Part shown: one piece after another, positions 10,297 to 63,734 of the stretch
Position numbering within the stretch: position 1 is the first letter of the stretch
How the letters are laid out: each line of letters begins with the position of its first letter
NCBI GenBank assembly: GCA_034090015.1
Contig: JAXDTJ010000018.1
Location: 41,740-105,739, forward strand
Length of the DNA stretch: 64,000 nucleotides
Source: Paludibacteraceae bacterium
GTDB taxonomy: Bacteria; Bacteroidota; Bacteroidia; Bacteroidales; Paludibacteraceae
Direction: 5' to 3'
The notes under the pieces: generated by a model
The model's database searches: none
The model's input: the letters and a program-made list of their open reading frames with translations, nothing else
Told to the model about the DNA's origin: nothing
Program-made: the position numbers and the translations under genes

Positions 10297-11499
10297 CTAC
10301 TCAAATGCACCCATCTGGAGCATCGAGACCTCCTTGGGCGTGAGGAAACGGTACTTGCCGCGAGCAACGTTCTTCTTGGTGAGACCGGCGAACGACACGC
10401 GGTCAAGTTGCATCACCTTATAGCCCACTTTCTCGAAGATACGGCGCACCACGCGGTTCTGCCCGGAGTGAATCTCCAAGCCGATATGGCGGCGATCCTC
10501 TTTCGGGAACTCCAAGGCATCGGGCACGATCTTCTCATCGTCCAGCAAGATACCTTCGCGTACAGTGGCTTCGTCCGTCTCGTCTAAATCGCGGTCGAGC
10601 GTTACGGCGTAAATCTTCTTCTTGCCGAACTTCGGATGCGTCAGTTTGGCAGCCAAGTCGCCATCGTTGGTCAGCAGGAGCACGCCCGTGGTGTTGCGAT
10701 CAAGTCTGCCTACGGGGTAGATACGTTCGGAGCAGGCGTTGCGCACGATGTCAATCACCGTGTTGCGCTCTTGAGGGTCATCGGTGGTCGTTACGGTGTT
10801 CTTCGGCTTGTTGAGCAGGATATACACCTTGCGCTCGCGGCGCACAGGCTGGTCGTGGAACTGCACTTTATCGGTCGGCAGCACCTTTGCGCCCAGCGAA
10901 TCAACCACCACGCCGTTCACCGAGATTACGCCTGCCTGTATGAAGTCGTCTGCCTCACGGCGCGAGCAGATGCCCGCATTGGCGAGGTACTTGTTCAAAC
11001 GAATAGGCTTCGTGGGGTCTTCGTATTGCTTCTGATAGGTCTGGCGTTTGCGCTGGCTATAAACGCCGGCATTACGCTGCGGACGCGGACGGAAGGCACG
11101 TTGCTGTCCCTCGCCGTTACCATTGTTATAACCGTTGTTTCTGTTGTTTTCGTAGTTCTCGTTGCTACCGTTGTAGCCGCGATTGTTGTAGCGCGGACGT
11201 TGCTGATAGTCGGATTGGTTCCCGTTGTTGAACCTCGGGCGGGGTTGATACTCGCCCCCCTCGGCATTGTAGCGCGGGCGCGGCGTTACGCGCTCGGCGC
11301 GTTGCTGTCCGTCAGCAGGACGGCTGAAACGCTGACGAGGGCGACCTCCTTCGCGGCGGTTGTTGAATCCGTCAGGAGTACCCGAGTAGCCGTTGTTCTC
11401 ACGGCGGGCATTGTAGCCCCCTTCACGATGGGAATTGTCTGCATTGAAACGCGGGCGACGTGCGCCTTCTGCATTGAAATCTTGATGATCGTTGTACAT
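10297..11499 (-). CDS. rluB: 23S rRNA pseudouridine synthase, RsuA/RluB family, with Arg/Asn/Gly-rich N-terminal extension
   Basis: S4 domain (IRLNKYLANAGICSRREADDFI) and catalytic motif VGRLDRNTTGVLLLTNDG. Confidence 0.85.
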   Translation of the reverse strand: MYNDHQDFNAEGARRPRFNADNSHREGGYNARRENNGYSGTPDGFNNRREGGRPRQRFSRPADGQQRAERVTPRPRYNAEGGEYQPRPRFNNGNQSDYQQRPRYNNRGYNGSNENYENNRNNGYNNGNGEGQQRAFRPRPQRNAGVYSQRKRQTYQKQYEDPTKPIRLNKYLANAGICSRREADDFIQAGVISVNGVVVDSLGAKVLPTDKVQFHDQPVRRERKVYILLNKPKNTVTTTDDPQERNTVIDIVRNACSERIYPVGRLDRNTTGVLLLTNDGDLAAKLTHPKFGKKKIYAVTLDRDLDETDEATVREGILLDDEKIVPDALEFPKEDRRHIGLEIHSGQNRVVRRIFEKVGYKVMQLDRVSFAGLTKKNVARGKYRFLTPKEVSMLQMGAFE

Positions 11500-11583: not shown

Positions 11584-11671
11584 AATTAAGAATTATGAAT
11601 TAAGAATTAAGAGCGGCTTACGCCAACGGGATAACCACTGCCTCTTAATTCATAATTCTTAATTCTTAATT
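11584..11671. repeat. TTAAGAATTATGAA-word hairpin between rpmF and rluB
   Basis: Left arm AATTAAGAATTATGAATTAAGAATTAAGAG, 29-nt GC-rich loop, right arm CTCTTAATTCATAATTCTTAATTCTTAATT. Confidence 0.85.
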
Positions 11672-11683
11672 CTCAACATTCAC

Positions 11684-11869
11684 TTACGCTTCTGCTGCCT
11701 GCTCGATAGCCAGTTTGCCACGATAGTAGCCGCAAGAGGGGCATACGGTGTGGTAGATGTAGTGTGCACCACAGTTCGGGCAAATAGCCAATGCAGGTAC
11801 AATCAGTTTGTCATGCGTACGACGTTTCGCTTGTCTGGTGTGCGATTGTCTTCTTTTAGGATGTGCCAT
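11684..11869 (-). CDS. rpmF: 50S ribosomal protein L32
   Basis: MAHPKRRQSHTRQAKRRTHDKL start, CPNCG...CPSCG zinc ribbon, 61 aa. Confidence 0.95.
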   Translation of the reverse strand: MAHPKRRQSHTRQAKRRTHDKLIVPALAICPNCGAHYIYHTVCPSCGYYRGKLAIEQAAEA

Positions 11870-11947
11870 AGTTGTGTTATAATTTTACAGAATAATGTTA
11901 TACGTTTTGACTTGCCGCCTTCAAGTTAGTAGCCACGCAGAATAGCC

Positions 11948-23263: not shown

Positions 23264-26200
23264 ATGAAAAACCGTTTATTCTTTTTATGCGTTGCCATGC
23301 TGGTGGCATGCGGCGTAACGATGGCTGACAACACTTGGTTTGAGGAGGGTCGTAACTTCTCTGCCTATTCTTTGGGTCAAGGCAAAGTGCATGTGAAGGT
23401 GCTGGTCTTTGCGAGAGGAGGTACGAATAACCACTGGGCAACGACGGGAAACGGCGGAAGCTTCGTCTATGCCTATTCCTCCGGAAATACAGTTTATGCG
23501 TTGCAGTACGAAGGCGATAATAATTACAACTGTGAGAACGACTACAAAGGTTGGGTGAAGTTTCAAGTGAAGAGCGGTACGGTGATTATTACCAATTCCT
23601 ACGGAGGCAACAACAGCACCACATACACTCCGAGCAACGGTTGGGTAAATCTATACCTATCGCGTACAGGAGAGAGCAACACCCCTACTTATTTGGAGTT
23701 CGACTGGTATCCGCCCACAGTCTTGGATAACAGGTCCTTCGACTTGAAAGCGACCATCACCGATACACGAAAGTATGGGGATACATGGACGCACACGTGG
23801 TACTTAGGCTCTTTCTCCGGCCTCTCTTTACAAGCGCCTATGCTCTATCAACCCGTGTTCTATAGCGTTGGAGAAGATGGTCAGCCGGGGCACGGACAAG
23901 TGGCTATTCCGTATGTGGTGTACCAAGAGCCGAAGAGTTACACCACCTCCACCACCGGCAATACTACCTTCATCTGCAAAGAGCGGACAGGTCAACTGCT
24001 GGCAAAGACCACCGACACGGTGCAGTATGGTTTTTCTGCCAACTTCACTGTCGTGCGCGAAGACAAGACCACCACGGTAGTAACTTCCAGCAAGGTGGAC
24101 ATCCCTGCGTTCCACCGTATCTATGATTTTAAAGCAGAACATTATGTACCGGAAGGTATGGATAGTATGTGGTATATAAAAACCAAGACCACCCTCAGTT
24201 GGAAGGTGCGGACACCCTGGGCAACCGATATCATGCCTATGGATATGTTCCAGATTCAGCGCGCCTACCATCCCGACTTCTCCGATGCCGAGACCCTCGC
24301 ACTCATCCCTTACGAGACAGGCAAGGGCACCTACCAGTGGGTGGACGACACAGAAGGGGCGATGAAAAACCTGAGAACGGATACTATTGACATGAATATC
24401 TACTATCGTGTAAACCGCGTCTCTACCACCAACTGGGGCTATGAAGGGCACGAGTGGGTGCGTACTACCGCCATCCGGAAAAACACCAGCTTAACGCATT
24501 TTGACTCCGATTATAGTAACTACCGCAAAGCAGACGATTTTCAAGAAACAAGGCGCGTGTTGTTTACATTAGAAACATTGACTGATCTAAACATGTCATA
24601 CTGTTGGGATGAGAGAGCCTCCATACGCGTACGCCGACTGGCTATCTCTGCCGTGGATACTATCATCACGGAGAGAGTATTCCCCGGCTCTATGGTGCGG
24701 CCCTTGCCCCCAGACCCCAAACGAGGCAACCCTTATTTCAGTACCCTCTACCGGTTTGACTTCGAAGATGTAGCAGACATCCCTTGTTGCCACTATGAGT
24801 ATGAGGTATATATAGACGACAGCCAAAGTCTGCTGAAGTTAGATGACTTGTACCACCGCTATCAAGAACCGCTGAAGTTAACCTCCTTAGACCTTTACTA
24901 CACCGATGCGGCTTCTATTGCTACCTTCCGCGTGTCGGACGGAGTCTATCCCGACCGTATCTTCCTGCAATGGAACCCAACATCAGGCAGCGTAGACTCC
25001 TTCTATGTATATCGGAGCACAGACCAGAGGCAAGGAGGCGAGGAGATTGCCCGCATCGCAGGACAGCACTATTATATAGACACGGATGTCGTCCCGGGCA
25101 CGGTTTACTACTATACCCTAATGGCGTCTTATCTTTGCGGCGGTACGCATCAGACGCAGTTTACCGAGCAAAAGAGAGGCAGTCTGTCGCCCTACGGATG
25201 CATCCGCGGGCGTATCACATACCCCAATGGCACCGGCAACGTCGGCGTAACAGTACGGGCTGAGGGTATAAGTGGAGATGTTGCTTCTATCACCCCCAAC
25301 TACCTCTATGCCGACTCCACACGCGTAGTATATAATAGTACGCAAGACCCCGTTTCCCTGAGCGGCGATTTCTCTATCCAGATGATGGTCAAAGACTCCG
25401 ACCTCACTATCGTTAGCGGTACCGGACACCCATTGCTATATAGCACCGATAGTACTTTCCGCCTCGAACTATCCGGCGAAACTATCCGCTTCACCATGGG
25501 CAACCAGACCAGACTACTCAGCCTACGTAACGAACACAGCCAAAACAACGATAACAACATTTTCTCCCTCACCCTCACCTACTGTGCCCACACCCAAACG
25601 GTAACCCTCTACCGCGATGAGCAACAGACCGCTACCGCCACTATCCCCCTGCACAACATCCATAGCCGCTTGCGCTTCTGCTGCCCCTACTCGCTCGCCC
25701 CCGTCTCTTCCTACGGCGTGGGCATTGATGAAGTGCGTATCTTCCACCGCGTGCTCTCACAAGACAACGTCCGCACATACTCGCGACATGCCTTGGCGGG
25801 AGACGAAAACGGACTGATACTCTACTACAAGTTCGACATGCTATCTTTATCTGATATCGCTATCCCCAATATAGCAAAGATGCAAGCCACGGACGGCAAC
25901 GGAATGATGGCAGCGAACAACGCACTCATTTGGGACAAGGCAAAAAATGATGATGATTACCGATATATCCACCTCCCGGGAGACCTCATCACGCGCTTCG
26001 AGGCACTCACCGACGAGAGCGGCAACTATGTCTTAGCGGGCATACCCTTTGCCAACGGCATTACTTACAGCCTTACCCCCACAGCCCAACACGGCACCTT
26101 CCGCTATAACGGCACATCCTCTGCTTCAGCCACCATCACGATTGGCAACACGCGCCCGGAAGCAACCGCTGTGGACTTCATGAACACCGATGCCGTGCGC

Positions 26201-29200
26201 TTCAGCGGCAGGATACTCTACGAACGCTCCACCATACCGGTGAAGGGCGTGCATTTCTTGGTGAACGGCATACTCGCCACCGATGCCACAGGCAACCCCG
26301 TCGAGACCAACGAGAGCGGTAACTTCCAGTTTGAATTGCCCAAAGCACCGATACGGGTGCAGGCTGTGAAAGACGGACACTGCTTTGCCAACGATGGATA
26401 CCTGATTCTCAACGGAGACACCCTCTTCCAACCTACCGACAACATCGATGCCATTCGCTTCTACGACCGAACGAAGGTACGCCTCATCGGGCGTATTGCC
26501 GGCGGTAACGACCAAGGACTACTCCCCTTAGGCTTCGGACTCAGCCGTAACAACCTCGGCGACCATATCTGCATGGTGCTGGAGTTAGAGGGCGACAACG
26601 CCGCGCAGATAGTCTTCGACCCCTTGGACAAGACCCTCAACCGCCTTGACACCACTATCGTCCATGCCATAGACACCACCCAACATACCGACATTTCCTT
26701 GCAGAGCAAGCGGATAATGATTTACCCCGACCCGGCTTCCGGAGAGTTCTTTGCCGACCTCTTCCCCGTGAAGTACAAAGTAACCCAACTGACCGCACAA
26801 GGCTATAGCACGCTCACCAACGAGAAGACCGCCATGCAGGTCATAGACCTCACCAACAAACTCGACAGCCAATACACCTATTATACTGACACCATTCAAG
26901 GAGGTGCGGTCTCCAGGCCGCACCAAGAGAACTATGACGAAACCATGGTGCGGTTAGGAGACCGCACCTCCTTGGCCTTCCACGACACCTTCCGACATAT
27001 CTACCATAGCCCCATCACCGTAACGCCCGTACAGAGCCTTTACGGCATGGAGGTGGGCTATTTCGGCGTCGAGCGTATCGCTGTGCAACGATGGGACGGA
27101 GAGTCGGAATCCCAGTCGGTAGCACTTGCCAAAGAAGACGGCACCTATGAATACCTCTTCGGAAAACCCATCTTCACCGAAGGCAAATACACCTTCAATA
27201 TCTACGCGCACGAGGACTATTACTATAATGGCGACCGCAACCTCGGCAAGCACGACCGCGTGATGCTCCACGAAGGCGAGGTGAAAATCTATAACGGCAT
27301 GCACTCCAACACAGAAGTGCTGACCGGGACGCTCGATAAAGACGGTGTCTGCCGCAACATGGTCCTCCGCGCGGATTATCCCACCTACACGCGCGTGGAC
27401 GAAGACGCTGCGCGAAACATACAGGTTACTGTAACCTACGAGCGTGAATCCCATACTACCGAGCCTTTGCGGGTGCTGGTATTCGCCGACCGACGAGAGG
27501 GAACAGAGGCAATATCCTCCACCACGGCAGACATCACACTCTACGATATCCTGCGCGACCCGCCCGGCTCCGGCAGTTTCGCTACACTCAGCGCAGGAGC
27601 ATCATACTCCGCATCGAAAACATGGGCGTTATCCGTCAAAGCGGGTGTCACACTCGAGTTCGAAAAAGGAGTAAAATATGCCGGATTTGTGGGAGCGGTT
27701 ACTGCCGTCCCGGGACTGCTATCAGCGCAAAACTATAACATAAACACAACCACACCATTCAGCATTCCGCTGGTGTATAATTATTCCATCAACAAAGATT
27801 ATAGTTATTCCTATTCCACCACCGAGACCATACGAACGGGTAGTGATGCCTACCATGTAGGTGCAAAAGCGGACATATTCATGGGGGCAGTGGAGAATCT
27901 CTATATATCTACTTGCCACGGTATGGCTGTGCTGGACTCGCTGACCTATCTATCGATGGCTGCGCAGAAGGAGAACGGCACCATGCGGCATATCGCTACC
28001 GCACGAAATCTACAAGGTGAACTACGCCACCTCGTGGTAGCGCCTAAACTCACCTTAGACATGGTGCAGGATGCCACTTTCTGCTACACCCAAGAGCACA
28101 TCCTCACCACCGTGATTCCCAAACTGGTAGCCCAACGCAATGCCTTGGTGCTTTGCGTGGACTCAGCGGCGGCAAGAGCAAAAGCCAATCAAGAGAAAAA
28201 GCGTATCTACTACACTACGATGAGCCCTGATAGTGCCGACTTCGCAATAACACGCGGGAAAGGGTACGACTTTGTTGACCCCGTAAATAATACCGATAAT
28301 ACACCCGAGGCGGATAAAGTAGCCGGTATCAACCGTGCCATCCTCGCTTGGACCAACCTGATAAAACAAAACGAGAAGGAGAAGGTCAATGCACAATATA
28401 CCACCGACAAAAAAACATATTCCGTGGCAGGTGGCTCTACGCTTACCTATTCCGAAACGGTAACTTACGGCAGCAAATATAACGAAATACCCTTCAACTT
28501 GGGCGGTTCTGCCGGAGCAAGCAATCTGAGCAATCTATGGGGAAACGCCATCAACAAAACCATACAGACGCTTCTACAGGTAGGTGGAAAGGCTGATTCT
28601 ATCACCATTGAGAGCGAAGCGCCGGGCAGCAAGTTCTCCTTCAGTTTGAAACCCATTGCCAATATAAGCACCCAACCAACTTACGCCGCCTCCGAACAGA
28701 AGTCGCGCACCTATGGTTATACGCTATCCCCAGACCGGTTCGGATATATGGATGTGCAAGTAATGCGCATGAAAGACACGATAAGCGATTTCTACCAAAA
28801 CGCGGAGGATACCCTTGCGTTAACAGGAGAGAAAGCCAATGGTAAACTGCAAAGTTACAGCAGTTTCATCTTCCGCCAGTTGGCAGGTGCCAGCCGCTGC
28901 CCGTGGGAGGATGCCGACTCCACACTCTTCTACCAGCCCGGCACGCCGCTGAGCATTGCCACCGCGCGCTTGGAAAACCCGCAGATAACCATCGCCCAAC
29001 GCGAGATAAGTAATGTGCCTGCCGACCAACGCGCCATCTTCCAAATCGCCCTCAACAACGAGCAGACCTACTACACGGGCATAGGTGCAGCCACCCTGCC
29101 CTTTGAACTGTCGGTTATGCCGGGTAGCAACCCCAACGGACTCAAGATAACCATAGACGGCCAACCCCTCACCTCGGATCCTTTATCCATCACTCTCCCG

Positions 29201-32200
29201 CACGGCACTACGATCCACAAGACCATAGAGGTGGAGCGCGGACAGGGTTACGACTTCGAGGACATCACGCTCCTCCTGCGCTCTACCTGCGATATCATGG
29301 AGTATGCCCTCGCCGCCTTCTCCGTCCATTTCGTACCTGCCGCCACCCCTGTCTCCATGCCTACCCCGCATGACCAATGGGTGCTTAACACGCAGTCCGC
29401 ACGCGACTCCGCAGGCTACTACCTACCCGTCTCCATCGACGGCTTCGACATCCACTCCGACGGCTTCGACCATATCGAGTTGCAGTACAAGCCCCACACC
29501 GCCTCCGATGCTGATTGGGTGAACATCTGCTCCTACTACGTCTCCGACAGCCTCTACGAGCAGGCATCGGGCACCAAGCAGCGTATCGCGGGCAGCAAGA
29601 TAGACAACATCCGTTTCTACGGCGGGCGCGACCCCATGGAGCAGGAGTACGACCTCCGTGCTATGGCGTTCGCACGCTACGGCAACGGCTTCGTTACTCG
29701 CGCCTCGGAGGTGCTCCACGGCGTGAAAGACACACGCCGACCCGAACTCTTCGGCACCCCAACGCCTGCCGACGGCATACTTTCCGTAGGCGATGTGCTC
29801 TCGCTGCGTTTCAGCGAACCCATTGCAGGAAACCTATTGGACGAGGATGTTAATTTCGAGGTGATTGGTACGGATGATGTTCTCTCACTCACCACCTCCC
29901 TCCATTTCACAGGCGAATTCTCTTGCTACGCCCGCACAAAGGTTACCCGCAACATGAACGCCCGACCCTTCACCATTGAGGCAATGATTAAACCTACCGG
30001 AAATGCAGCCTTGCAAACCATCTTCGCGCTGGACAACGAGAAAGAGCCTCTGTGGTTCGCATGGGCGGGAGACCATCTCGAAGCACAGATAGGAAAAGTG
30101 CGACTGCAATCCGCCACCGTAGAGCCTATCCTCGACTTCACACGAGTAGCACTTACCTACAACCTGGAGGACTCTATTGCCCGATTCTTTGTTGGAACAC
30201 AAGAGATTAATTATGAATTAAGAATTAAGAATTATGAGCATTCCGAGCACTCCGATAACTCCGAACACTCCGATTACTCAGCAACCAACGCGAAGCCGTC
30301 GTACCATAGTGCTGCTCAACTGATTTGGGGTAACAATGCTACTTATGATGCTCCCTTCCAAGGGGATATGTTGGAAGCACGACTATGGACGAAAGCACTC
30401 ACGCAAGCCGAGTTGGCGCGGTATAAAGACTGCCATCTGACGGGCTACGAGCGCGAACTGGTGGCATATTACCCGATGAACGAAGGGAAAGGCACTACTT
30501 GCGAGGACAAAGCCAATGGTGCCACCCTCACCCTTAACGGCACCTCGTGGGTACTGCCCGAAGGTATGTCTATCCACTTGAACGGCGCAGAGCCTATCTG
30601 TCTCAACGGCGACCTGCTCAGCCGCTCCGACATCGAAGACCTGACCCTGCTCTTCTCCTTCAAGGCAGACGAAAACCTCGCTGATACATCTGAACTCCTG
30701 CATGCAGGCAAGCATACCATGCACCTTACCTCGGATGCCTTGCTATGGAGAACCGACAGCACCGAACGCCGTGCACCGGGGGCTTTTGCAGATGCTCAGT
30801 GGCACCAGTTGGTGGTGGCTATTGACCGCACGAGGAATATAGCCTCTCTGCTTGTGGATGGCAACACACTGCTTGCCACAGCGGCTGACGACATACCCGC
30901 CTTCGCAGACAGTGTCTGGACACTGGGGCAGTCTTTCCGAGGACATATCGATGCTTTCACGCTCTTCGAACAGGCATTGCCTACCTATGTGATAGAACGC
31001 TACAACAATCTCGCACCGCAAGGAGACGAGATGGGACTTATCGCATATATGCCTTTCGGGCAGTATATCCTCCAACCCAACGGACGCTACGAGTTAGTCT
31101 ATTCGCCGGAGAACGCCCGTATCTTCCGCGATGCCGACGGGAATACGGTAGAGAAGCACCAAAAGCTGGTGATGAACAACCTCACACGCTACACCGATAA
31201 AAAGGATTTTGCACCCTTGCGTAATGGGAATGCCCGAAAGAAACTTAACTTCTCGTGGGCAAGCAATGGCGATGAACTGATGATAAACATCAACATGCCC
31301 GACCATGAGATTAACCATCGCAACCTGCTCCTGACGGTGCAGCGCGTGGAGGACCAACATGGCAACGCCATGCTCAGCCCCCACACATGGGCGGCTTATG
31401 TGCACCGGCAGCAACTGCGTTGGGACAACCCGCAGATTAACTATGAGCAACAGGTTCCTGGTTCCGAGTCTCAGGTTTCAAGTGCGCAGCCTTACACCTT
31501 CACCGCCACCATCCGCAACCACGGTGGTACTACGCGGGAGTATCATCTTAACTCCCTTCCCTCGTGGCTCACGGCGCAGCCGGCTTCCGGATTCCTTGCG
31601 CCGCTGGAGACGCAGACCATCACCTTCACTGTGGACGAAGGGCTGAACATCGGCGAATATACCGAGTATATCTACCTGACCGACGACCAACAGTTGGACG
31701 ACCGCTTGTTGCTCAACCTGCACATAAAAGCCACCTGCCCTTGGACACTCGACCAGACGGAACTCAACCGCTCCATGTCGCTAATCGGGCAGGTACAAAT
31801 ACCCGTCGAGAACGGTACAATACAAATAGATACCGACTCACAGGATATGGTGGCAGCCTTCGTTGGCGAGCAGTGCGTGGCTTTGGCTCCCGTGCGGCTG
31901 AATCAGCAGACAAAGCCGGTTACCTACATGACCATCTACGGTAACGATAGCCATGCAGGCAAGGCGCTACGCTTCCAACTCTGGCATGCCAAGAACGGCA
32001 AGGTCTATATCCTTGCCCCGAGCGAAGACATCCCCTTCCGCGCCAACGAATGTTATGGCTGCGAGGGTACACCCATCACGCTCACCGTGACCGACCGACA
32101 GGTGCAACTGCTCACGCTGCAGCCCGGGTGGAATTGGTTCAGCCTGTATCTCAAGCCCACCTATCGCTCGGACCTCACGCGCCTCTTCTGTTCATCCGAC

Positions 32201-33334
32201 GCATGGACGAACGGCGACATCATCAAGAACCCCGAAGAGCAATACTTCGCAGAATATCAGATGAATACCTCGCCAATTCGATGGTATGGTACCCTATCCA
32301 CGATACGGTACCGCAGCATTTTCTTGGCGCATGTGTCGAATCCTATTCTACTGCAGATTGAGGGCGACCGTTTGGACGATGAGGGACGCACGCTCACGCT
32401 TGAGCAGGGGTGGAACGTAATGCCCTATCTCCTGACAGAGAAGCAGTCGCTCACCGACGCCTTGGCTGACTACTACGACGATGCCTCCGAGGGCGACCTC
32501 ATCAAGAGTCGCGATGCCTTTGCTGTCTTCTCCCACGCAGGCAAGTGGGAAGGCAACCTCACATATATGCAACCCGGGCTGGGGTACATGCTCCGCCGCC
32601 TCGCACCCGACCCCTGTACCTTCACTTACTATACTTATAACCCGTTGGAACAAGGGACAGGAAGCCAGGAGTCAAGAATTAATTATGAATTAAGAATTAA
32701 GAAAAAATCGTTCGAGCGTAGCGGAGATAAGAATTATGAGGGCAACGCAAACAACGTAAACAACGCAAACAACGCAAACAACGCGCAGCCTTACACCTCT
32801 GCCACTACCATGTCGCTCATTGCCACGGTGGAATTGGAGCCGGGAGTCAAGAACCAAGAACAAAGACTAAATGGTTCCAACGATGAGATTGCAGAAACGA
32901 AGGTAATAAGTCTTTCATCCTGTGTCCTTTGTCCTTCATCCAATGAAAGCCTTACCCTCGCTGCTTATATCGGCAACAGGCTTGTGGGGGTCGGTTATCC
33001 GCAGCAGGTAGGGACAACGACAGAAGACGCTATCTTCTTCCTATCTATCGCCGATGGCGCAGAGGTGGCAAGTGGGCAGTGGCCAGTGGCCAGTGGTCAG
33101 GAGGTTAGTGGTCAGATACGCTTTGTCCTTCTCTGCAACGGCGAGCCGGTGGCACACGGCACCCAGACCTTGCCTTATCAACAAGATACGGTGGTGGGTA
33201 CCCTACGCAAACCCTATCGTATCACATTCCATACCATAGACGATATGCAAGACAAGCCGTATAAGATATTGGAAAATCAACAAATATACATTATTCGCAA
33301 TGAAAACAAATATAATATCCTTGGCGTTCATTAG
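23264..33334 (+). CDS. giant (3356 aa) secreted surface protein with FN3-like, carboxypeptidase-regulatory-like and three LamG (laminin-G_3) domains
   Basis: Signal peptide MKNRLFFLCVAMLVACGVTMA. FN3-like FLQWNPTSGSVDSFYVYRS. LamG endings IDEVRIFHRVLSQDNV, LEARLWTKALTQAEL and IDAFTLFEQALP. The frame is uninterrupted for 10 kb. Confidence 0.85.
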   Translation: MKNRLFFLCVAMLVACGVTMADNTWFEEGRNFSAYSLGQGKVHVKVLVFARGGTNNHWATTGNGGSFVYAYSSGNTVYALQYEGDNNYNCENDYKGWVKFQVKSGTVIITNSYGGNNSTTYTPSNGWVNLYLSRTGESNTPTYLEFDWYPPTVLDNRSFDLKATITDTRKYGDTWTHTWYLGSFSGLSLQAPMLYQPVFYSVGEDGQPGHGQVAIPYVVYQEPKSYTTSTTGNTTFICKERTGQLLAKTTDTVQYGFSANFTVVREDKTTTVVTSSKVDIPAFHRIYDFKAEHYVPEGMDSMWYIKTKTTLSWKVRTPWATDIMPMDMFQIQRAYHPDFSDAETLALIPYETGKGTYQWVDDTEGAMKNLRTDTIDMNIYYRVNRVSTTNWGYEGHEWVRTTAIRKNTSLTHFDSDYSNYRKADDFQETRRVLFTLETLTDLNMSYCWDERASIRVRRLAISAVDTIITERVFPGSMVRPLPPDPKRGNPYFSTLYRFDFEDVADIPCCHYEYEVYIDDSQSLLKLDDLYHRYQEPLKLTSLDLYYTDAASIATFRVSDGVYPDRIFLQWNPTSGSVDSFYVYRSTDQRQGGEEIARIAGQHYYIDTDVVPGTVYYYTLMASYLCGGTHQTQFTEQKRGSLSPYGCIRGRITYPNGTGNVGVTVRAEGISGDVASITPNYLYADSTRVVYNSTQDPVSLSGDFSIQMMVKDSDLTIVSGTGHPLLYSTDSTFRLELSGETIRFTMGNQTRLLSLRNEHSQNNDNNIFSLTLTYCAHTQTVTLYRDEQQTATATIPLHNIHSRLRFCCPYSLAPVSSYGVGIDEVRIFHRVLSQDNVRTYSRHALAGDENGLILYYKFDMLSLSDIAIPNIAKMQATDGNGMMAANNALIWDKAKNDDDYRYIHLPGDLITRFEALTDESGNYVLAGIPFANGITYSLTPTAQHGTFRYNGTSSASATITIGNTRPEATAVDFMNTDAVRFSGRILYERSTIPVKGVHFLVNGILATDATGNPVETNESGNFQFELPKAPIRVQAVKDGHCFANDGYLILNGDTLFQPTDNIDAIRFYDRTKVRLIGRIAGGNDQGLLPLGFGLSRNNLGDHICMVLELEGDNAAQIVFDPLDKTLNRLDTTIVHAIDTTQHTDISLQSKRIMIYPDPASGEFFADLFPVKYKVTQLTAQGYSTLTNEKTAMQVIDLTNKLDSQYTYYTDTIQGGAVSRPHQENYDETMVRLGDRTSLAFHDTFRHIYHSPITVTPVQSLYGMEVGYFGVERIAVQRWDGESESQSVALAKEDGTYEYLFGKPIFTEGKYTFNIYAHEDYYYNGDRNLGKHDRVMLHEGEVKIYNGMHSNTEVLTGTLDKDGVCRNMVLRADYPTYTRVDEDAARNIQVTVTYERESHTTEPLRVLVFADRREGTEAISSTTADITLYDILRDPPGSGSFATLSAGASYSASKTWALSVKAGVTLEFEKGVKYAGFVGAVTAVPGLLSAQNYNINTTTPFSIPLVYNYSINKDYSYSYSTTETIRTGSDAYHVGAKADIFMGAVENLYISTCHGMAVLDSLTYLSMAAQKENGTMRHIATARNLQGELRHLVVAPKLTLDMVQDATFCYTQEHILTTVIPKLVAQRNALVLCVDSAAARAKANQEKKRIYYTTMSPDSADFAITRGKGYDFVDPVNNTDNTPEADKVAGINRAILAWTNLIKQNEKEKVNAQYTTDKKTYSVAGGSTLTYSETVTYGSKYNEIPFNLGGSAGASNLSNLWGNAINKTIQTLLQVGGKADSITIESEAPGSKFSFSLKPIANISTQPTYAASEQKSRTYGYTLSPDRFGYMDVQVMRMKDTISDFYQNAEDTLALTGEKANGKLQSYSSFIFRQLAGASRCPWEDADSTLFYQPGTPLSIATARLENPQITIAQREISNVPADQRAIFQIALNNEQTYYTGIGAATLPFELSVMPGSNPNGLKITIDGQPLTSDPLSITLPHGTTIHKTIEVERGQGYDFEDITLLLRSTCDIMEYALAAFSVHFVPAATPVSMPTPHDQWVLNTQSARDSAGYYLPVSIDGFDIHSDGFDHIELQYKPHTASDADWVNICSYYVSDSLYEQASGTKQRIAGSKIDNIRFYGGRDPMEQEYDLRAMAFARYGNGFVTRASEVLHGVKDTRRPELFGTPTPADGILSVGDVLSLRFSEPIAGNLLDEDVNFEVIGTDDVLSLTTSLHFTGEFSCYARTKVTRNMNARPFTIEAMIKPTGNAALQTIFALDNEKEPLWFAWAGDHLEAQIGKVRLQSATVEPILDFTRVALTYNLEDSIARFFVGTQEINYELRIKNYEHSEHSDNSEHSDYSATNAKPSYHSAAQLIWGNNATYDAPFQGDMLEARLWTKALTQAELARYKDCHLTGYERELVAYYPMNEGKGTTCEDKANGATLTLNGTSWVLPEGMSIHLNGAEPICLNGDLLSRSDIEDLTLLFSFKADENLADTSELLHAGKHTMHLTSDALLWRTDSTERRAPGAFADAQWHQLVVAIDRTRNIASLLVDGNTLLATAADDIPAFADSVWTLGQSFRGHIDAFTLFEQALPTYVIERYNNLAPQGDEMGLIAYMPFGQYILQPNGRYELVYSPENARIFRDADGNTVEKHQKLVMNNLTRYTDKKDFAPLRNGNARKKLNFSWASNGDELMININMPDHEINHRNLLLTVQRVEDQHGNAMLSPHTWAAYVHRQQLRWDNPQINYEQQVPGSESQVSSAQPYTFTATIRNHGGTTREYHLNSLPSWLTAQPASGFLAPLETQTITFTVDEGLNIGEYTEYIYLTDDQQLDDRLLLNLHIKATCPWTLDQTELNRSMSLIGQVQIPVENGTIQIDTDSQDMVAAFVGEQCVALAPVRLNQQTKPVTYMTIYGNDSHAGKALRFQLWHAKNGKVYILAPSEDIPFRANECYGCEGTPITLTVTDRQVQLLTLQPGWNWFSLYLKPTYRSDLTRLFCSSDAWTNGDIIKNPEEQYFAEYQMNTSPIRWYGTLSTIRYRSIFLAHVSNPILLQIEGDRLDDEGRTLTLEQGWNVMPYLLTEKQSLTDALADYYDDASEGDLIKSRDAFAVFSHAGKWEGNLTYMQPGLGYMLRRLAPDPCTFTYYTYNPLEQGTGSQESRINYELRIKKKSFERSGDKNYEGNANNVNNANNANNAQPYTSATTMSLIATVELEPGVKNQEQRLNGSNDEIAETKVISLSSCVLCPSSNESLTLAAYIGNRLVGVGYPQQVGTTTEDAIFFLSIADGAEVASGQWPVASGQEVSGQIRFVLLCNGEPVAHGTQTLPYQQDTVVGTLRKPYRITFHTIDDMQDKPYKILENQQIYIIRNENKYNILGVH
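26897..26974. repeat. 78-nt palindromic element in-frame in giant ORF
   Basis: Arms GGAGGTGCGGTCTCCAGGCCGCACC / GGTGCGGTTAGGAGACCGCACCTCC. The left arm is identical to 62935-62959. Confidence 0.85.
30206..30280. repeat. TTAAGAATTATGA words + CACTCCGA words in-frame in giant ORF (LamG domain 2)
   Basis: ATTAATTATGAATTAAGAATTAAGAATTATGAG, then GAGCACTCCGATAACTCCGAACACTCCGATTACTC. Confidence 0.85.
32666..33115. repeat. cluster of five different word-repeat families in-frame in the giant ORF 3' region
   Basis: Five families are present: TTAAGAATT words (32675-32705); CAACGCAAA x~5 (32744-32786); AAGAACC words (32846-32865); the AAGGTAATAAGTCTTTCATCC... copy of the 58204 repeat (32897-32945); and CAGTGGC words (33070-33115). 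Confidence 0.85.
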
Positions 33335-33785
33335 CCTTCTTCTTCTGAGTTCGTGTAAGCGCGAGACGATTTTTCCTACCCACCCGCAGCCGGACTGGCA
33401 GGTGGTGAGCGATGTAGATATGCGTTATAGCATGACATTAGTAGGTGCTCTACCTGAGCACCTACTCGCCGATGCGGACACCGCAGACATCATCGCTGCC
33501 TTCGTAGTAGCCAACTCCGAGAACTCCGACACCCTCTGCTGTGGGCTCACCCATCTCACACCTATCCTCGGCAGCAACGAAAACAACAACGCCACTTACC
33601 TCCGCGCCTTCCTCTATATTACCCTGCCAACGGGGGTGAAGGAAGACTGCCGCATTTTCTTTCGCTACTACGCCACCCGCACACGCTACCTCTACCAAGC
33701 GGAAAGCACCATTCCCTTCCAATCGGATGCCATCATAGGCAACATCTCCGACCCCTACGAGATAGCCTTCGGGGAGCCGAGATGA
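33300..33785 (+). CDS. lipoprotein paralogous to the C-terminal module of the giant protein
   Basis: MKTNIISLAFISLLLLSSC lipobox. The ATG lies 35 nt inside the giant ORF. The sequence pattern SMTLVG...DIIAAFV...IPF...DPYEIAF matches two modules of the giant protein. Confidence 0.65.
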   Translation: MKTNIISLAFISLLLLSSCKRETIFPTHPQPDWQVVSDVDMRYSMTLVGALPEHLLADADTADIIAAFVVANSENSDTLCCGLTHLTPILGSNENNNATYLRAFLYITLPTGVKEDCRIFFRYYATRTRYLYQAESTIPFQSDAIIGNISDPYEIAFGEPR

Positions 33786-34340: not shown

Positions 34341-35228
34341 ATGGAGAATTTTGCCGGATTAAGCGGGCGTTGGGCGGACGAAAAGACCGCGCGGATAGTG
34401 GTGTTGCCTGTGCCTTATGACAAGACGAGTTCGTGGGTACACGGTGCGGAGAAGGGACCGGAAGCCTTCTTGGAGGCGAGCGTGCAGTTGGAGTGGCTGG
34501 ACACGGAGACGCGGACGGAGGTCTATCGTCAGGGTATCCATACCGCCGCGCCCGTAACGGAAGACCGCACGCCGGCGTTGCTATGCGAGGCGGTGGAAGA
34601 ACGCATGGGGGCACTATGGGACGCGGGGAAGTTCCCCTGCATGATAGGCGGCAACCACACGGTGTCTATCGGTGCTTGCCGCGCGGCGGCGAAGCGTTTT
34701 GAGGGGCTGACGGTGCTGCAATTAGACGCACACAGCGACCTGCGACCCGAATACGAGGGGTCGGAGTTGAACCACGCCTGCATCATGAAAGAGGCGCAGA
34801 AAGTGGCGAAGACGGTGCAGGTGGGGATCCGCAGCCAGTGCGTAGAAGAGGCGGAGAACGCTGCGAAGAGCACGATTATATGGGCGCGCGAGATATGGGA
34901 AGACGAGACCTTCGGGCAGCGACCTGCCTCGGCGAGCGAGAGTTGGGCGTGGGAGAAGCGGGTATATGATGCGCTGACGGAGAATGTGTATCTGACCATC
35001 GACCTCGATGTGTTCGACCCTGCTTATCTGCCCTCTACGGGTACGCCGGAGCCCGGGGGCATGGGCTACTATCAGGTGCTGCACCTGCTGCGACCTGTGT
35101 TCGAGCGATACAACGTGGTGGGGTTTGATATCGTGGAACTCTGTCCGAGCCCGACCCGCCAAGCGCATGCGTCGCAGTACCTCGCCGCACGGCTGGCATA
35201 TCAGTTGATGACATACAAATTTATTTGA
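34341..35228 (+). CDS. speB: agmatinase (arginase/ureohydrolase family)
   Basis: GGNHTVSIG, LDAHSDL and DLDVFDP Mn-binding motifs, in a polyamine gene context. Confidence 0.85.
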   Translation: MENFAGLSGRWADEKTARIVVLPVPYDKTSSWVHGAEKGPEAFLEASVQLEWLDTETRTEVYRQGIHTAAPVTEDRTPALLCEAVEERMGALWDAGKFPCMIGGNHTVSIGACRAAAKRFEGLTVLQLDAHSDLRPEYEGSELNHACIMKEAQKVAKTVQVGIRSQCVEEAENAAKSTIIWAREIWEDETFGQRPASASESWAWEKRVYDALTENVYLTIDLDVFDPAYLPSTGTPEPGGMGYYQVLHLLRPVFERYNVVGFDIVELCPSPTRQAHASQYLAARLAYQLMTYKFI

Positions 35229-35305
35229 CAATTGGACAATTTACAATTTGACAATTATGCGCCGCATGGCTAATTGTAAAATTGTCAATTGTAAAATTGT
35301 AAAAT
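35224..35305. repeat. GACAATTT-word hairpin between speB and nspC
   Basis: Loop TGCGCCGCATGGC. The speB TGA lies inside the first word. Confidence 0.85.
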
Positions 35306-35311
35306 GATACC

Positions 35312-36553
35312 ATGTTTCCCAATCCTTGCTACATAGTGGAAGAGCGGCTTCTGCACCGTAACCTCGCGCTGATAAAGCGCGTGGCGGATGAGACGGGCGT
35401 GGAGATAATCTTGGCATTCAAGGCGTTTGCGCTTTGGAAGACTTTCCCTATCTTCCGTGAGTATATTCAGCATACCACGGCTTCGAGTGTCTATGAGGCG
35501 CGGCTGGCATACGAGCAATTCGGTGCCCCCGCGCACACCTATAGCCCCGCCTACACGGAGGAGAACTTCCCCGAGTTTCTGCGGTATTCGAGCCATATCA
35601 CGTTCAATAGTTTGAGTCAGTGGGAGAGATTTGGAAGGATCCAAGAACCAAGAACCGAGAACCAAGAGGGGAGAGTCTCTTTCGGCATACGTATTAACCC
35701 TGAGTATTCGGAGATAGAGACCTTGCTCTACAATCCTACGGCGCCCGGGTCGCGGTTTGGCGTGCTGGCGGAGCAGTTGGAGACCTATTGCGAGGCGCGT
35801 GGCGGGAGGCTGCCCGAAGGATTGGAGGGCTTTCATTGCCACTGCCATTGCGAGGATGATTCCTACACTTTCGAGCGGACGCTGCAACACATAGAGGCGA
35901 AGTTCGGCAAGTGGTTCCCGCAGTTGCAATGGCTCAACCTCGGCGGCGGGCACCTGATGACCCGCAAGGACTACGATGTGGAGCATCTGATAGGGTTGCT
36001 CAAAGGACTGCGCAGCCGCTATCCGCACCTGAAGATACTGCTTGAGCCCGGCAGCGCGTTTGCTTGGCAGACGGGTGTGCTGACGAGCAAGGTGGTGGAT
36101 ATCGTGGAGAACCACGGTATACGGACGGCAATACTGAACGTGTCGTTTGCCTGCCACATGCCCGACACGCTGGAGATGCCCTATCAACCGGCAGTGAGGG
36201 GAGCAAGACCCACCCCTCCCCTCCCTGAAGCCACCCCACTACGCGTTGCTTGTGGGGACCCCGGAAAGGGAGGGAGTGAAGACCCCCGCGAGGTAGGGAG
36301 TGAAGAGGGGTATCGGTATCGCCTTGGGGGCAATAGTTGTCTGTCGGGGGACTGGATAGGCGATTGGGTGTTTGACCACGAGTTGCAGATTGGGGAGGAG
36401 ATAATCTTTGAGGATATGATTCACTACACCACGGTGAAGACGCACATGTTCAACGGCATTGCTCATCCCTCGCTGGGAATACGCCGCGAAGACGGCACGG
36501 AGGAAGTGCTCCGCACATTTGATTACGAAGATTACTTGAATAGGATGGACTGA
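35312..36553 (+). CDS. nspC: carboxynorspermidine/carboxyspermidine decarboxylase
   Basis: N-terminus PCYIVEERLLHRNLALIK...ILAFKAF (PLP Lys), then LGG.SCLSGD and HYTTVKTHMFNG blocks. It carries two repeat-derived in-frame inserts. Confidence 0.85.
   Translation: MFPNPCYIVEERLLHRNLALIKRVADETGVEIILAFKAFALWKTFPIFREYIQHTTASSVYEARLAYEQFGAPAHTYSPAYTEENFPEFLRYSSHITFNSLSQWERFGRIQEPRTENQEGRVSFGIRINPEYSEIETLLYNPTAPGSRFGVLAEQLETYCEARGGRLPEGLEGFHCHCHCEDDSYTFERTLQHIEAKFGKWFPQLQWLNLGGGHLMTRKDYDVEHLIGLLKGLRSRYPHLKILLEPGSAFAWQTGVLTSKVVDIVENHGIRTAILNVSFACHMPDTLEMPYQPAVRGARPTPPLPEATPLRVACGDPGKGGSEDPREVGSEEGYRYRLGGNSCLSGDWIGDWVFDHELQIGEEIIFEDMIHYTTVKTHMFNGIAHPSLGIRREDGTEEVLRTFDYEDYLNRMD
35637..35671. repeat. 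AAGAACC words in-frame in nspC
   Basis: GGATCCAAGAACCAAGAACCGAGAACCAAGAGGGG. The same word occurs at 32846. Confidence 0.75.
36205..36312. repeat. GC-rich repeat block in-frame in nspC
   Basis: Contains CACCCCACTACGCGTTGCTTGTGGGGACCCCGG, which matches 38593-38630 (CACCCCACTGCGCGTTGCTTGCGGGGACCCCGC). Confidence 0.8.
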
Positions 36554-36560
36554 TATTAAA

Positions 36561-36645
36561 CTTGTAATTTGTAATTTTTAATTTGTAATTTTTAATTGCC
36601 ATTCGGCGAAAATAATTACAAATTAAAAATTAAACATTAAAAATT
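36561..36645. repeat. TGTAATTT-word hairpin between nspC and speA
   Basis: Left arm CTTGTAATTTGTAATTTTTAATTTGTAATTTTTAATT, loop GCCATTCGGCGAAA, complementary right arm. Confidence 0.85.
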
Positions 36646-39966: not shown

Positions 39967-40063
39967 ACAATTTGAAAGTTAACAATTTGAAAATTTGAAA
40001 ATGACGATGCAGAATTAATCATTTTCAAATTTTCAAATTTACAAATTTACAAATTTTCAAATT
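39967..40063. repeat. TTTGAAAA-word hairpin between dehydrogenase and GT2 genes
   Basis: TTTGAAAATTTGAAAATGA - loop - TCATTTTCAAATTTTCAAA... Confidence 0.85.
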
Positions 40064-41028: not shown

Positions 41029-41128
41029 CATTTGACAATTTGACAATTTACTATTTTACAATTAACCATGCGGCGCATAGTTGTCAAATTGTAAATTGTC
41101 AAATAGTCAAATAGTAAATTGTCAAATA
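41029..41128. repeat. GACAATTT-word hairpin between GT2 and hypothetical gene (inverted copy of the 35224 family)
   Basis: The loop CCATGCGGCGCATAG is the reverse complement of the 35258 loop. Confidence 0.85.
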
Positions 41129-54978: not shown

Positions 54979-56328
54979 TTAGCCTTGGTGTTGGGGGCGG
55001 AGGAGGTCGTTGACCATCTTGACGGGGTTGAAGGTGCTGACGGGCACTTCTACGAAGAGGGTGTTCCACTTCGCCATCGCGCCGTTCCACAAGCCCGGTA
55101 ACTCAAGTGCGAGCAGTTCTTTGCCATCCTTCGATTTCTGGGAGATGAAGCCCGTCTGCGGGTCCACATAGTCGGGGAGATGGAAGGGCTTGCCGTTGAC
55201 ATCGCGGGTAGCGCATACGAGGTCCACGGGGTTGAAGTGGGTAGCCTGCGCCATGAGAGCGGGGTCGGCTATCTGCGAGGACTCGAGGATTTGTCGGCTG
55301 ATAGTGCCGTCAGCGTCGCGCACGAGGAAGGGTCCGCCGCCGGGCTCGCCCGTGTTCTTCACTACGCCGCAGACGCGGATAGGACGGTTGAGGCGCTCGC
55401 GCTCTTCGTCCGTGATAGTGGGGTCTTGCAGGCGCGCGAACACACGCTTCTGCTCTGCCACGAGTACGCCGGCGAGAATCTGCTTGTAGCGCACGGTGTC
55501 TTTCTTCAGTCGGTCGGGCACTACATTGTCAATGTTCTTCACGAAGATAATGTCAGCATCCTGTGCGTTGAGGTTTTCAATGAGTGCTCCGTGTCCTCCC
55601 GGGCGGAAGAGGAGTTTGCCCTCTTTGTCGCGGAAGGGGGTGCCGTCGGGGTTAGCAGCGAGCGTATCGGTGCTGGGCAGTTGCTCGGAGAAGGAGATGT
55701 CGAAACGCACGCCGTACTTGGTCTCGAAGGCTTGCAGGTGGTCGGCAATGTGCTGACGGAAGAGGGGCAGGTGCTGGTGGGAGACGGTGAAATGGAGGTG
55801 CACCTGTCCGTTGCTGGCTGCGTAGAGTGCGCCTTCTACCATGTGCTCCAAGGCGGGGGTGCGGGGACCGTCTTTGTATTTATGAAAGAGGAGCAATCCC
55901 TTGGGCAGGTCGCCATAGTGCATGTCTTCGAGGAGGAAGCGCACGGCGTCTTGCCCGCTCTTGCCTGCGAGTTGGTCGCCGAAAGCAAAATCATCGATAT
56001 GGGTGAGGAACTCCTGTATGAATGCCGTCTCTTCGCCGTCTTCGAGGTACTGGAAGAGGTTCTTGAACATACGGCTGGCAGCGCCGCTGGCGGGGACGAA
56101 CTTCAAGATTTTGTGTCCCTCGGCGAGGTAGTCCTCCCAGATGCGGATGTACTCGTCCTGCTCTTTCTTGGTGGGGGCGAGGATACCGTCTTTGGTGGAG
56201 GCGGCGGCTACGATGTCTAATGCGGGGAAGCCTGTGCGAAAATGCTCCAGTTGTTCTTCGGCTTTCGCCACACTGATGCCTCGGGCTTCTAACTGCTCAA
56301 GGTCTTGGGGAGTGAAGACTGTGTTCAT
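54979..56328 (-). CDS. DUF4301 family protein
   Basis: N-terminus FTPQDLEQLEARGISVAKAEEQLEHFRTGFP and the KFVPASGAASRMFK block match my memory of DUF4301. This was not checked against a database. Confidence 0.6.
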   Translation of the reverse strand: MNTVFTPQDLEQLEARGISVAKAEEQLEHFRTGFPALDIVAAASTKDGILAPTKKEQDEYIRIWEDYLAEGHKILKFVPASGAASRMFKNLFQYLEDGEETAFIQEFLTHIDDFAFGDQLAGKSGQDAVRFLLEDMHYGDLPKGLLLFHKYKDGPRTPALEHMVEGALYAASNGQVHLHFTVSHQHLPLFRQHIADHLQAFETKYGVRFDISFSEQLPSTDTLAANPDGTPFRDKEGKLLFRPGGHGALIENLNAQDADIIFVKNIDNVVPDRLKKDTVRYKQILAGVLVAEQKRVFARLQDPTITDEERERLNRPIRVCGVVKNTGEPGGGPFLVRDADGTISRQILESSQIADPALMAQATHFNPVDLVCATRDVNGKPFHLPDYVDPQTGFISQKSKDGKELLALELPGLWNGAMAKWNTLFVEVPVSTFNPVKMVNDLLRPQHQG

Positions 56329-56334: not shown

Positions 56335-56445
56335 GATTAAGAATTAAGAATTATGAATTAAGAGTGCATTTTTGGGTCGTTATCGGTTCGGTATCGTCTC
56401 GTCATCGTCTCACTATTCTCTCGTGAATCACCCACGAATCACCTA
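56335..56445. repeat. three word families in the DUF4301 leader
   Basis: GATTAAGAATTAAGAATTATGAATTAAGAG, TCGT(T/C)ATCG words, and GAATCACC(C/T)A x2. Confidence 0.8.
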
Positions 56446-62412: not shown

Positions 62413-62913
62413 ATGATTCAAGCCAACGAACTCATACGAATCGGCACGATGCGACGCCCGCACGGCAAAAGCGGGGAACTGCAATGCCAAATGGACAACG
62501 ACTACTGGGACGAAGCCGATGCCGACTTCCTTATCCTGCTCTTGGACGGCATCTTCGTGCCTTTCCGCGTGGAAGACTGGCGAGGGAAGGGAGCAGATAG
62601 CCTTATCTTTCGGTTGAAAGGGGTAGATTCGGAAATCAAAGCGCTGCGGTTAGTGAACGCGGAGGCGTACATGCTCCGCCGCGACCTTGCCGAGGAGGCG
62701 GAGGAGATGATGACTTGGCAGGACTTGACAGGTTATGAGGTGCTGAATGGCAATCGTGTGGTGCAGGGTAGGGTAGCAGCCGTGGATGAATCCACTATCA
62801 ACACCTTATTAGAATTGGAAGACGGACGCCTCTTGCCGGTGCACGAAGATTTGATAATAGAGATAGACGAACCGCAGAAACGCATTATCCTCGACCTGCC
62901 AGAAGGACTGTAA
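62413..62913 (+). CDS. rimM: 16S rRNA processing protein RimM
   Basis: IGTMRRPHGKSGEL N-terminal motif and PRC-barrel-like C-terminus, 166 aa. Confidence 0.8.
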   Translation: MIQANELIRIGTMRRPHGKSGELQCQMDNDYWDEADADFLILLLDGIFVPFRVEDWRGKGADSLIFRLKGVDSEIKALRLVNAEAYMLRRDLAEEAEEMMTWQDLTGYEVLNGNRVVQGRVAAVDESTINTLLELEDGRLLPVHEDLIIEIDEPQKRIILDLPEGL

Positions 62914-62934: not shown

Positions 62935-62959
62935 GGAGGTGCGGTCTCCAGGCCGCACC
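62935..62959. repeat. solo arm of the GGAGGTGCGGTCTCC palindromic element
   Basis: 25 of 25 nt identical to 26900-26924. Confidence 0.85.
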
Positions 62960-62983
62960 ATCGGAGAAAAGGGCGCGGACTAT

Positions 62984-63613: not shown

Positions 63614-63620
<7 letters not shown>
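63021..63620 (+). CDS. TrmH/SpoU family RNA 2'-O-methyltransferase
   Basis: VVVLDNVRSQHNVGAVFRTADAF, VLGHEVFGV and IPQYGTKHSLNVSVTAGIVMY motifs. It carries a 16-codon repeat-derived insert. Confidence 0.85.
63388..63435. repeat. GC-rich MITE-arm sequence in-frame in trmH-family gene
   Basis: CTGGGGACGCGGGCGTCTCGCCC (63391-63413) is identical to the reverse complement of 17768-17790. Confidence 0.8.

Positions 63621-63734
<114 letters not shown>

Follow-up and report, generated by a model that had tools for sequence, protein, structure and literature searches.

How do repeat words that stand between genes come to be spelled out, in frame, inside a folded domain of a giant protein, and what would their presence there mean? 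The question is raised by an AT-rich tract in a 64,000-nt stretch of DNA from a Paludibacteraceae bacterium (Bacteroidales; GenBank assembly GCA_034090015.1, contig JAXDTJ010000018.1, positions 41,740 to 105,739 of the forward strand), hereafter called the window, whose coordinates are used throughout. A first-pass annotation of this DNA had noted that words beginning at 30206 interrupt the second laminin G (LamG) domain of a giant open reading frame (ORF), and had recognized in them the words of an intergenic hairpin at 11584. We find that the tract is an insertion in a loop of that domain and is specific to this strain, and we consider it probable that it is tolerated and translated, having arisen by slippage and ectopic copying from a template under a filter for stop-free frames.

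A repeat-word tract in a laminin G loop

The tract and its host are laid out as follows:

23264-33334, plus strand: giant ORF of 3356 amino acids (aa) with LamG-like domains and a signal-peptide-like N-terminus, host of the tract (ORF list, translation, PF13385 at residues 700-836)
29927-30418, plus strand: Laminin_G_3 (ConA-like) domain interrupted by the tract (Pfam PF13385, E 4e-13)
30206-30292, plus strand: putatively translated repeat-word tract, 87 nt, in frame, residues 2315-2343 of the ORF
30206-30238, plus strand: heptamer array ATTAATT-ATGAATT-AAGAATT-AAGAATT-ATGAG, equal to ATTAATTATGAATTAAGAATTAAGAATTATGAG, peptide INYELRIKNYE
30239-30280, plus strand: nonamer array CAT TCC GAG / CAC TCC GAT / AAC TCC GAA / CAC TCC GAT / TAC TCA, peptide HSEHSDNSEHSDYS
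30281-30292, plus strand: GCAACCAACGCG, remnant end of an AACGMAAAY nonamer family, of which AACGCG is common to the short allele of relatives (allele alignment, site comparison)

The tract opens with four AATTATG/AATTAAG heptamer words, reported by Tandem Repeats Finder (TRF) at 30209-30234 with period 7, 3.7 copies and 94% matches, and passes into CATTCCGAG CACTCCGAT AACTCCGAA CACTCCGAT TACTCA, that is, about four to five CACTCCGAN nonamers (TRF period 9/18, 30236-30279). Read in the frame of the ORF it gives INYELRIKNYEHSEHSDNSEHSDYSATNA, and the peptide segments spanning it are ...FFVGTQEINYELR / IKNYEHSEHSDNSEHSDYSATNAKPSYH. Sequence, TRF and ORF translation agree that the words are real and in frame, and the GC content drops as sharply as first annotated, to 0.32 across 30170-30259 in 60-nt windows against 0.45-0.65 in the surroundings. 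The start at 30206 also stands; the end, initially put at 30280, is placed by the relatives at 30292. Identity with the words of the hairpin at 11584 is likewise secure: AATTATG and AATTAAG are common to both, and AATTAAGAATTA with at most one mismatch occurs 18 times in the window against 0.21 expected, a count reached in none of 100 shuffles. One further copy, left unlinked to the tract in the first-pass annotation, lies in the same ORF and in the same frame (32678-32703, 26 nt). The number of words per locus varies from 3 to 14, and 42 nt of the tract have no second occurrence in the window.

As an RNA structure or a promoter the in-ORF copy plays no part: it is unstructured, with an RNA-fold z-score of -0.13, Rfam matches no family over the whole window, and a TAnnTTTG motif of the Bacteroidetes type is missing from the tract and its vicinity, which rules out an internal promoter. 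An intron, intein or bypass element is ruled out as well, the tract being 87 nt long, stop-free, in frame and unstructured.

That the tract interrupts a LamG domain, and does so as an insertion, is seen directly in the profile match. With the tract in place PF13385 aligns in three stretches at 50.1 bits; once residues INYEL...SATN are removed it aligns in a single stretch covering profile positions 6-151 of 151 at 54.6 bits, both constructs lying above the gathering cut-off of 27.6 bits. The label of second LamG domain holds too, as the same family also matches residues 700-836. An AlphaFold2 (AF2) model of residues 2150-2560, built on an 8-sequence alignment with a mean predicted local distance difference test score (pLDDT) of 60.6, gives an all-beta sandwich with domain pLDDT of 65-84, and puts the tract (model residues 166-193) in a low-confidence coil (169-193, pLDDT below 50) between strands 156-161/164-166 and 201-206. 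The best Foldseek match in the PDB is laminin alpha2 LG4-5 (E 1.4e-10), with neurexin L2-L3 also matched; since the model holds two domains at once, template-modelling (TM) scores stay low, at 0.25-0.36. Taken with the profile, the model points to a Laminin_G_3 or ConA-like beta-sandwich resembling solved domains of the LG type and of the LNS type (for laminin, neurexin and sex hormone-binding globulin). NCBIfam has no match for the giant protein or for its neighbour, so a C-terminal domain of the type IX secretion system is without model support.

The host gene is kept across relatives. Full-length orthologues of 3288-3327 aa are found in four of them, at 95-97% aa identity, and the ratio of nonsynonymous to synonymous substitution rates (dN/dS) between the window gene and these four is 0.23-0.36; the gene is thus under purifying selection. 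The tract, in contrast to what protein-level conservation in homologues without the words would look like, is missing at the loop in all seven database proteins sampled (36-49% identity), and closer relatives fill the loop differently.

Alleles, hot spots and the origin of the tract

Relatives were gathered in two ways. A scan with one genome per species gave 72 loci, five of them close. Exact matches to the 161/162-aa protein of the neighbouring gene added a further 15 contigs, which come from metagenomes of pig gut and of other guts and of which four hold a full-length gene. A 29-nt degenerate flank pattern had no match in a metagenome contig collection, from which the lineage of the window seems to be absent. 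At the loop, taken as the segment between FFVGTQE and KPSYH, the sequences carry:

L001, L005, L200, L201, L210, L211, L213: 45-nt degenerate short allele VNYKIKNDEDNENNA
L202, L212: short allele with one- or two-residue differences
L205: contig begins inside the short allele
Window: 87-nt allele, the sole long allele seen
L002, L003: C5...G5 palindrome (TPSNSPYEGGGS)
L004: GTGGTCA heptamers, then AACGNAAAY nonamers

The short allele, 14 aa shorter, is thus carried by nine or ten close relatives, the more distant L002-L004 hold repeat fillers unrelated to the window tract, and the CACTCCGAN nonamer array is found in no relative examined. Long and short alleles match at both ends, TTAATTAT...AAGAATgATGAG and ...AACGCG, from which it follows that the loop already held a degenerate word array. 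Judging from these alignments, the strain of the window may have rewritten an older array into perfect words and added a new nonamer array.

The loop is one of a small set of such sites. When the window gene and the four full-length relatives were aligned, every indel among the five genes fell within five sites, A, C, F, G and H, which are given here together with a further site, E:

Hot spot A, about residues 1205-1233, 26897-26974, plus strand: 78-nt in-frame palindrome with 18-nt perfect terminal inverted repeats CAAGGAGGTGCGGTCTCC / GGAGACCGCACCTCCTTG, peptide QGGAVSRPHQENYDETMVRLGDRTSL
Hot spot C, residues 2315-2343, plus strand: the tract under study
Hot spot E, 31436-31489, plus strand: INYEQQVPGSESQVSSAQ; holds a heptamer and nonamer cassette in L207 and L004
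Hot spot F, about residues 3130-3175, 32678-32797, plus strand: 120-nt cassette of AATTAWG words, an AAATCG-type insert, AATTATGAG, (AACGCAAAC)n and GCGCAGCCTTACACC
Hot spot G, about residues 3199-3236, 32828-32950, plus strand: variable low-complexity segment
Hot spot H, about residues 3268-3290, 33065-33115, plus strand: GTGGSCA heptamers (TRF period 7, 5.1 copies), peptide VASGQWPVASGQEVSGQ, with allelic variants in relatives

The fillers of these sites, namely the AATTAWG words, the GTGGSCA heptamers, the AACGCAAAC nonamers and the site A palindrome, are also found between genes. The GTGGTCA-type words at site H presumably resemble TTGGTCA of the short tandemly repeated repetitive (STRR) sequences.

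The sites exchange material. The window cassette at F and the L207 cassette at E are identical at 115 of 120 positions (96%), and the former ends in GCGCAGCCTTACACC, the 15 nt that in every relative flank site E natively on its 3' side; the cassette was thus copied from E to F and took 15 nt of its former flank along. At site C, the tract's own 33-nt heptamer array is identical to the array at site E of L004. Copy number of the nonamers at F varies among the window, L203, L208, L210 and L213.

What can be written into the gene is limited by the reading frame. Only one of the six frames of the heptamer array is stop-free, both other sense frames containing TAA or TGA. Enumeration of four-word AATTAAG/AATTATG arrays shows that the reverse complement is open in 0 of 16 and that the sense strand never has more than one open frame, and has it for certain word orders only, ATG-AAG-AAG-ATG among them. 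This filter explains why both in-ORF copies read INYELRIK, why just one hairpin arm is able to code and, in part, why identical arrays recur. The tract is accordingly not a copy of the hairpin itself, as only one arm's words are present and the reverse arm is closed by stops in every frame. About 15 related sequences keep the frame at every hot spot, with allele length differences in multiples of 3 and not of 7.

We suggest that the loops at these hot spots would be repeatedly rewritten: replication slippage may alter nonamer copy number in frame, and ectopic template switching, or copying resembling gene conversion, may carry repeat tracts from one hot spot to another. Selection would then keep stop-free products in multiples of three, with AATTAWG words on the sense strand only and in orders such as ATG-AAG-AAG-ATG. 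The product would be a disordered, polar or acidic loop of about 28 residues that is tolerated and that may alter the surface or the ligand rim of the domain.

Several points weigh against this account. Many substitutions as well as indels separate the long allele from the short one, so that the steps between them cannot be put in order. The donor of the CACTCCGAN nonamers was not found within the 64-kb window, and that half of the tract may thus be a de novo expansion or come from beyond those 64 kb. The long allele is known from the assembly alone, and the AF2 model has 8 sequences and a mean pLDDT of 60.6 behind it. Translation of the tract is suggested by the conserved frame and by purifying selection, that is, by sequence comparison, and the data fit neutrality and adaptive variation alike. 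To these may be added that no junction microhomology above 1 nt, and no intermediate, was seen.

The nonamer half may have been seeded or donated by a sequence further downstream. AACTCCGAGAACTCCGAC (NSENSD, 33513-33530), two units that are kept in all relatives, is the only other tandem occurrence of ACTCCGA words in the window, and belongs to the next gene (33300-33785, plus strand). The giant ORF overlaps the start of that gene by 35 nt at its 3' end (33300-33334); its 161-aa product has a signal sequence like that of a lipoprotein and belongs to a 90%-identity cluster of 271 members.

Alternative explanations

Four other explanations were weighed, and are taken in the order of the weight that they retain: programmed cassette diversification, a mobile element, phase variation and an assembly artefact. 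The first would have the five hot spots be maintained cassette sites of an adhesin-like protein, with the words as recombination handles and with antigenic or phage-receptor variation under diversifying selection. The confinement of indels in a 3356-aa protein to five sites fits it, as do the mosaic allele combinations among relatives (L211 has the window's allele A together with L212's alleles F and G), the 120-nt cassette that sits at E or F and at both in none of the relatives seen, and the heptamer and nonamer composite that recurs at A, C, E and F. Near the gene, however, neither a silent donor locus nor a recombinase or invertase was seen, the window holds no donor for the nonamers (none was found for AACGCAAAC either), and the hot spots are perhaps merely the sole places that tolerate insertions. 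Similar repeat inserts in a housekeeping enzyme, moreover, speak for a mutational process acting across the genome and against a dedicated system. The enzyme is carboxynorspermidine decarboxylase (NspC; 35312-36553, plus strand). Its residues 299-328 (36207-36300, RPTPPLPEATPLRVACGDPGKGGSEDPREV) form an in-frame insert of some 30 aa, which is encoded by a GC-rich palindromic and 24-nt tandem repeat and which 36gy, a close homologue of solved structure, lacks. We regard programmed diversification as unlikely, though it is the strongest of the four. A related proposal, that the loop is the target of a diversity-generating retroelement, was rejected since alleles differ by indels and whole word families and not by A-specific substitutions; no template copy was found in the window, and reverse-transcriptase genes were not searched genome-wide.

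NspC has smaller extras at about residues 109-115 (CCAAGAA heptamers, 35641-35667) and about 157-163. Upstream of the S4 domain the RluB-type synthase (10297-11499, minus strand) has an N-terminal extension of about 160 aa with a 14-nt tandem array at 11169-11202, which may be another translated repeat region.

That the tract is instead one frame-keeping insertion of a transposable repeat unit, akin to a miniature inverted-repeat transposable element (MITE) or to a Rickettsia palindromic element (RPE), seems to us very improbable. In-frame insertions whose repeats are also present in intergenic DNA are a hallmark of RPEs (PMC10969869), and hot spot A does hold a true palindrome, present in the window and in L211, replaced by nonamer arrays in L210, L212 and L213, located elsewhere in the L004 orthologue (positions 78-224) and represented by an intergenic half-copy. 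That element is RPE- or MITE-like in form and is separate from the tract. In or near the tract itself we found no inverted partner, terminal inverted repeats or second arm, only sense-strand words; no direct repeat or target-site duplication flanks it, and its unit length is not fixed. It consists instead of tandem 7- and 9-nt words of varying number, the reverse arm of which is non-coding. The half-copy of the site A element (62935-62960, plus strand) is a small GC hairpin 22 nt past the stop of gene 62413-62913.

Phase variation, in which gain or loss of a single heptamer would shift the frame and toggle the giant protein, merits still less weight and is highly improbable. It could appeal to heptamers that are not multiples of three, to the stops (TAA/TGA) in the other sense frames and to a surface-type host; against it, there are just two perfect adjacent units, and the conserved frame and multiple-of-three length differences at all hot spots, described above, are not what a switch would leave. 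Least credible of all is an assembly artefact, a false join in the de Bruijn graph by way of the 26-nt repeat that recurs at 32678-32703. It could draw on the restriction of the long allele to the window and on contigs that start 56 nt upstream (L202) or inside the tract (L205); against it, after 87 nt the tract rejoins the same gene in the same frame, 42 nt of it are unique within the window, both of its ends are common to the short allele, and a mis-join to site F would delete or duplicate 2.4 kb.

Short-read contigs of close relatives begin at or near the tract or downstream of it (L202 at window position 30150, L205 at about 30270, L203 at 30611), and all 34 blocks with the neighbour protein have contigs under 5 kb; assemblies of this lineage seem to break at the repeat hot spots. 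Positions 1-24 of the Logan contig L201 read TTCAGACGTGTGCTCTTCCGATCT, which looks like an Illumina TruSeq adapter remnant in the public assembly.

The words between genes, in other bacteria and among known repeats

In the window the words are at home between genes as well:

11584-11612 and 11643-11673, no strand assigned: hairpin, both arms of which are AATTAAG/AATTATG arrays, between rpmF and the RluB-type gene
11687-11872, minus strand: rpmF (Ribosomal_L32p)
10297-11499, minus strand: S4 and PseudoU_synth_2 gene (RluB-type)
56335-56363, no strand assigned: intergenic word array, 7 nt upstream of the start of gene 54979-56328 (minus strand)
63614-63634, no strand assigned: (ATTATGA)x3, intergenic, overlapping the stop of gene 63021-63620

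The hairpin at 11584-11673 has an RNA fold of -37.5 kcal/mol (z -5.5). The same words thus form hairpin arms or leaders between genes and, in the giant protein, what would be a disordered loop inside a folded domain. Tandem arrays in general favour such places: on a greedy ORF map that makes 91.3% of the window coding and 8.7% non-coding, 30 of the 45 arrays with a TRF score of at least 40 lie in the non-coding part, and 14 of these 30 end within 30 nt of a start codon. Directly after (ATTATGA)x3 comes the longest array of the window, (CTCTCAA/CTCTAAA) x12.6 at 63646-63733. Four spacers between co-directional genes (35223-35305, 36562-36645, 39969-40063, 41030-41128) are nearly filled, from stop codon to next start, by hairpins whose arms are tandem 7- or 8-nt words: ATTTGACA, TTGTAAT/AATTAAA and AATTTGAA/ATTTTCAA.

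Beyond this lineage, the 20-mer TTAAGAATTAAGAATTATGA was found in at least 120 metagenome contigs and in 7 viral (IMG/VR) contigs (L073-L199), with termite gut, rumen, sediments, soils and waters as the habitats among the matches listed. It continues as an array of 4-14 words in 115 of the 130 matches listed, in contigs with a GC content of 0.32-0.62. Arrays inside long ORFs make up 17 of 128 listed (13%), all 17 in sense orientation, the ORFs being, as judged by eye, synthetase-, pseudouridine-synthase- and glycosyltransferase-like. For 27 to 29 of the 128 listed arrays, the start ATG of a long ORF lies in the array or directly next to it, so that in about a fifth of the listed matches the ATG comes from the last AATTATG word or from just after it; 17 arrays have a hairpin partner. 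In four low-GC contigs (L123, L132, L133, L178) the same heptamers give LRIKNYEL at one place, ...RQPL-ELRIKNYEL-...EEVNVKEI..., in what looks like the C-terminal region of an isoleucyl-tRNA synthetase, where the peptide would be an insert that has been conserved, or else native sequence that was turned into words.

One bolder reading is that these words are written across distant bacteria by an active process, be it templated or stuttering synthesis at breaks and stalled forks or a horizontally transferred unit, rather than by independent slippage, that they are written into coding DNA as well, and that cassettes then hop. The breadth of the 20-mer over contigs of different GC and over viral contigs, its frequent place at a start ATG and the 13% of arrays in ORFs are compatible with this reading, which we nonetheless hold to be improbable. 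If it were true, this Bacteroidales lineage would have a built-in means of rewriting the surface loops of a giant adhesin-like protein.

Whichever process wrote the tract, in this uncultured gut Bacteroidales the length variation of a 10-kb surface-protein gene sits in five repeat-filled loops, with cassettes that can be copied between them, which bears on strain typing, on surface variation towards phage or antibody and on breaks in short-read assemblies. A simple rule also emerges for the survival of 7-nt repeats in genes: sense strand and particular word orders.

Comparison with known systems places the tract between several of them. Heptanucleotide repeats are the commonest long simple-sequence repeats (LSSRs) in bacteria (Mrazek et al. 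2007, as cited in PMC4679880). Most TAACTGA repeats, which Beggiatoaceae, Cyanobacteria and Bacteroidetes have in common, are located shortly upstream of start codons, and stop codons limit their use in ORFs (MacGregor 2015, PMC4679880). The words of the tract are like such LSSR- and STRR-type repeats in being tandem 7-nt units, mostly intergenic, near start codons, stop-constrained in orientation and apparently present in unrelated lineages. They differ from the described families CCCCAGT, TTGGTCA, CAACAGT and TAACTGA in sequence, and from LSSRs and STRRs in building hairpin arms and in being, as we propose, translated inside a folded domain through a particular word order. The puzzle of the same heptanucleotide words in unrelated bacteria is hereby extended to a new word family, AATTAAG/AATTATG, for which literature searches, including those for the peptides AATTAAGAATTAAG, NYELRI and ELRIKNYE, returned nothing relevant; a search for palindromic in-frame elements in Bacteroid* was equally unproductive.

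With the variable-number tandem repeats of surface proteins the giant gene shares in-frame 9-nt copy-number variation between strains in a large secreted protein; unlike them, it has different word families and palindromes replacing each other at one loop. Quasipalindrome or template-switch mutagenesis is an established replication-error mechanism, and would explain both the perfect tandem-word hairpins and a tract copied with bits of its old flank. In neurexin, the loop at splice site 4 (SS4) is beta10-beta11. The splice inserts of neurexin, laminin and agrin LNS domains are like the tract in that a loop of the LamG beta-sandwich may or may not contain a short flexible peptide, and the SS4+ and SS4- forms of neurexin LNS6 have been structurally characterised (PMC3084293). 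Here, unlike there, presence or absence is genomic and between strains rather than a matter of RNA splicing, and the parallel would be a functional analogy only.

The closest comparison is with RPEs, described in a review (PMC10969869, on Ogata et al. 2000, 2002) as selfish palindromic repeats found in frame in protein-coding genes. As with RPEs, one repeat family is both intergenic (here at 11584-11673, 56335-56363 and 63614-63634) and, probably, translated within ORFs (at 30206 and 32678), it falls in surface loops compatible with the fold, and housekeeping genes, here NspC, are also affected. RPE units are palindromic, about 100-150 bp long and encode a conserved peptide; the tract, in contrast, is made of non-palindromic 7- and 9-nt words, varies in word number, is polymorphic between strains and appears to move between the hot spots of one gene. 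Non-coding repeats becoming protein is thus clear here and not unprecedented, and the close relatives, which give the states before and after, make of this locus a clean and datable case.

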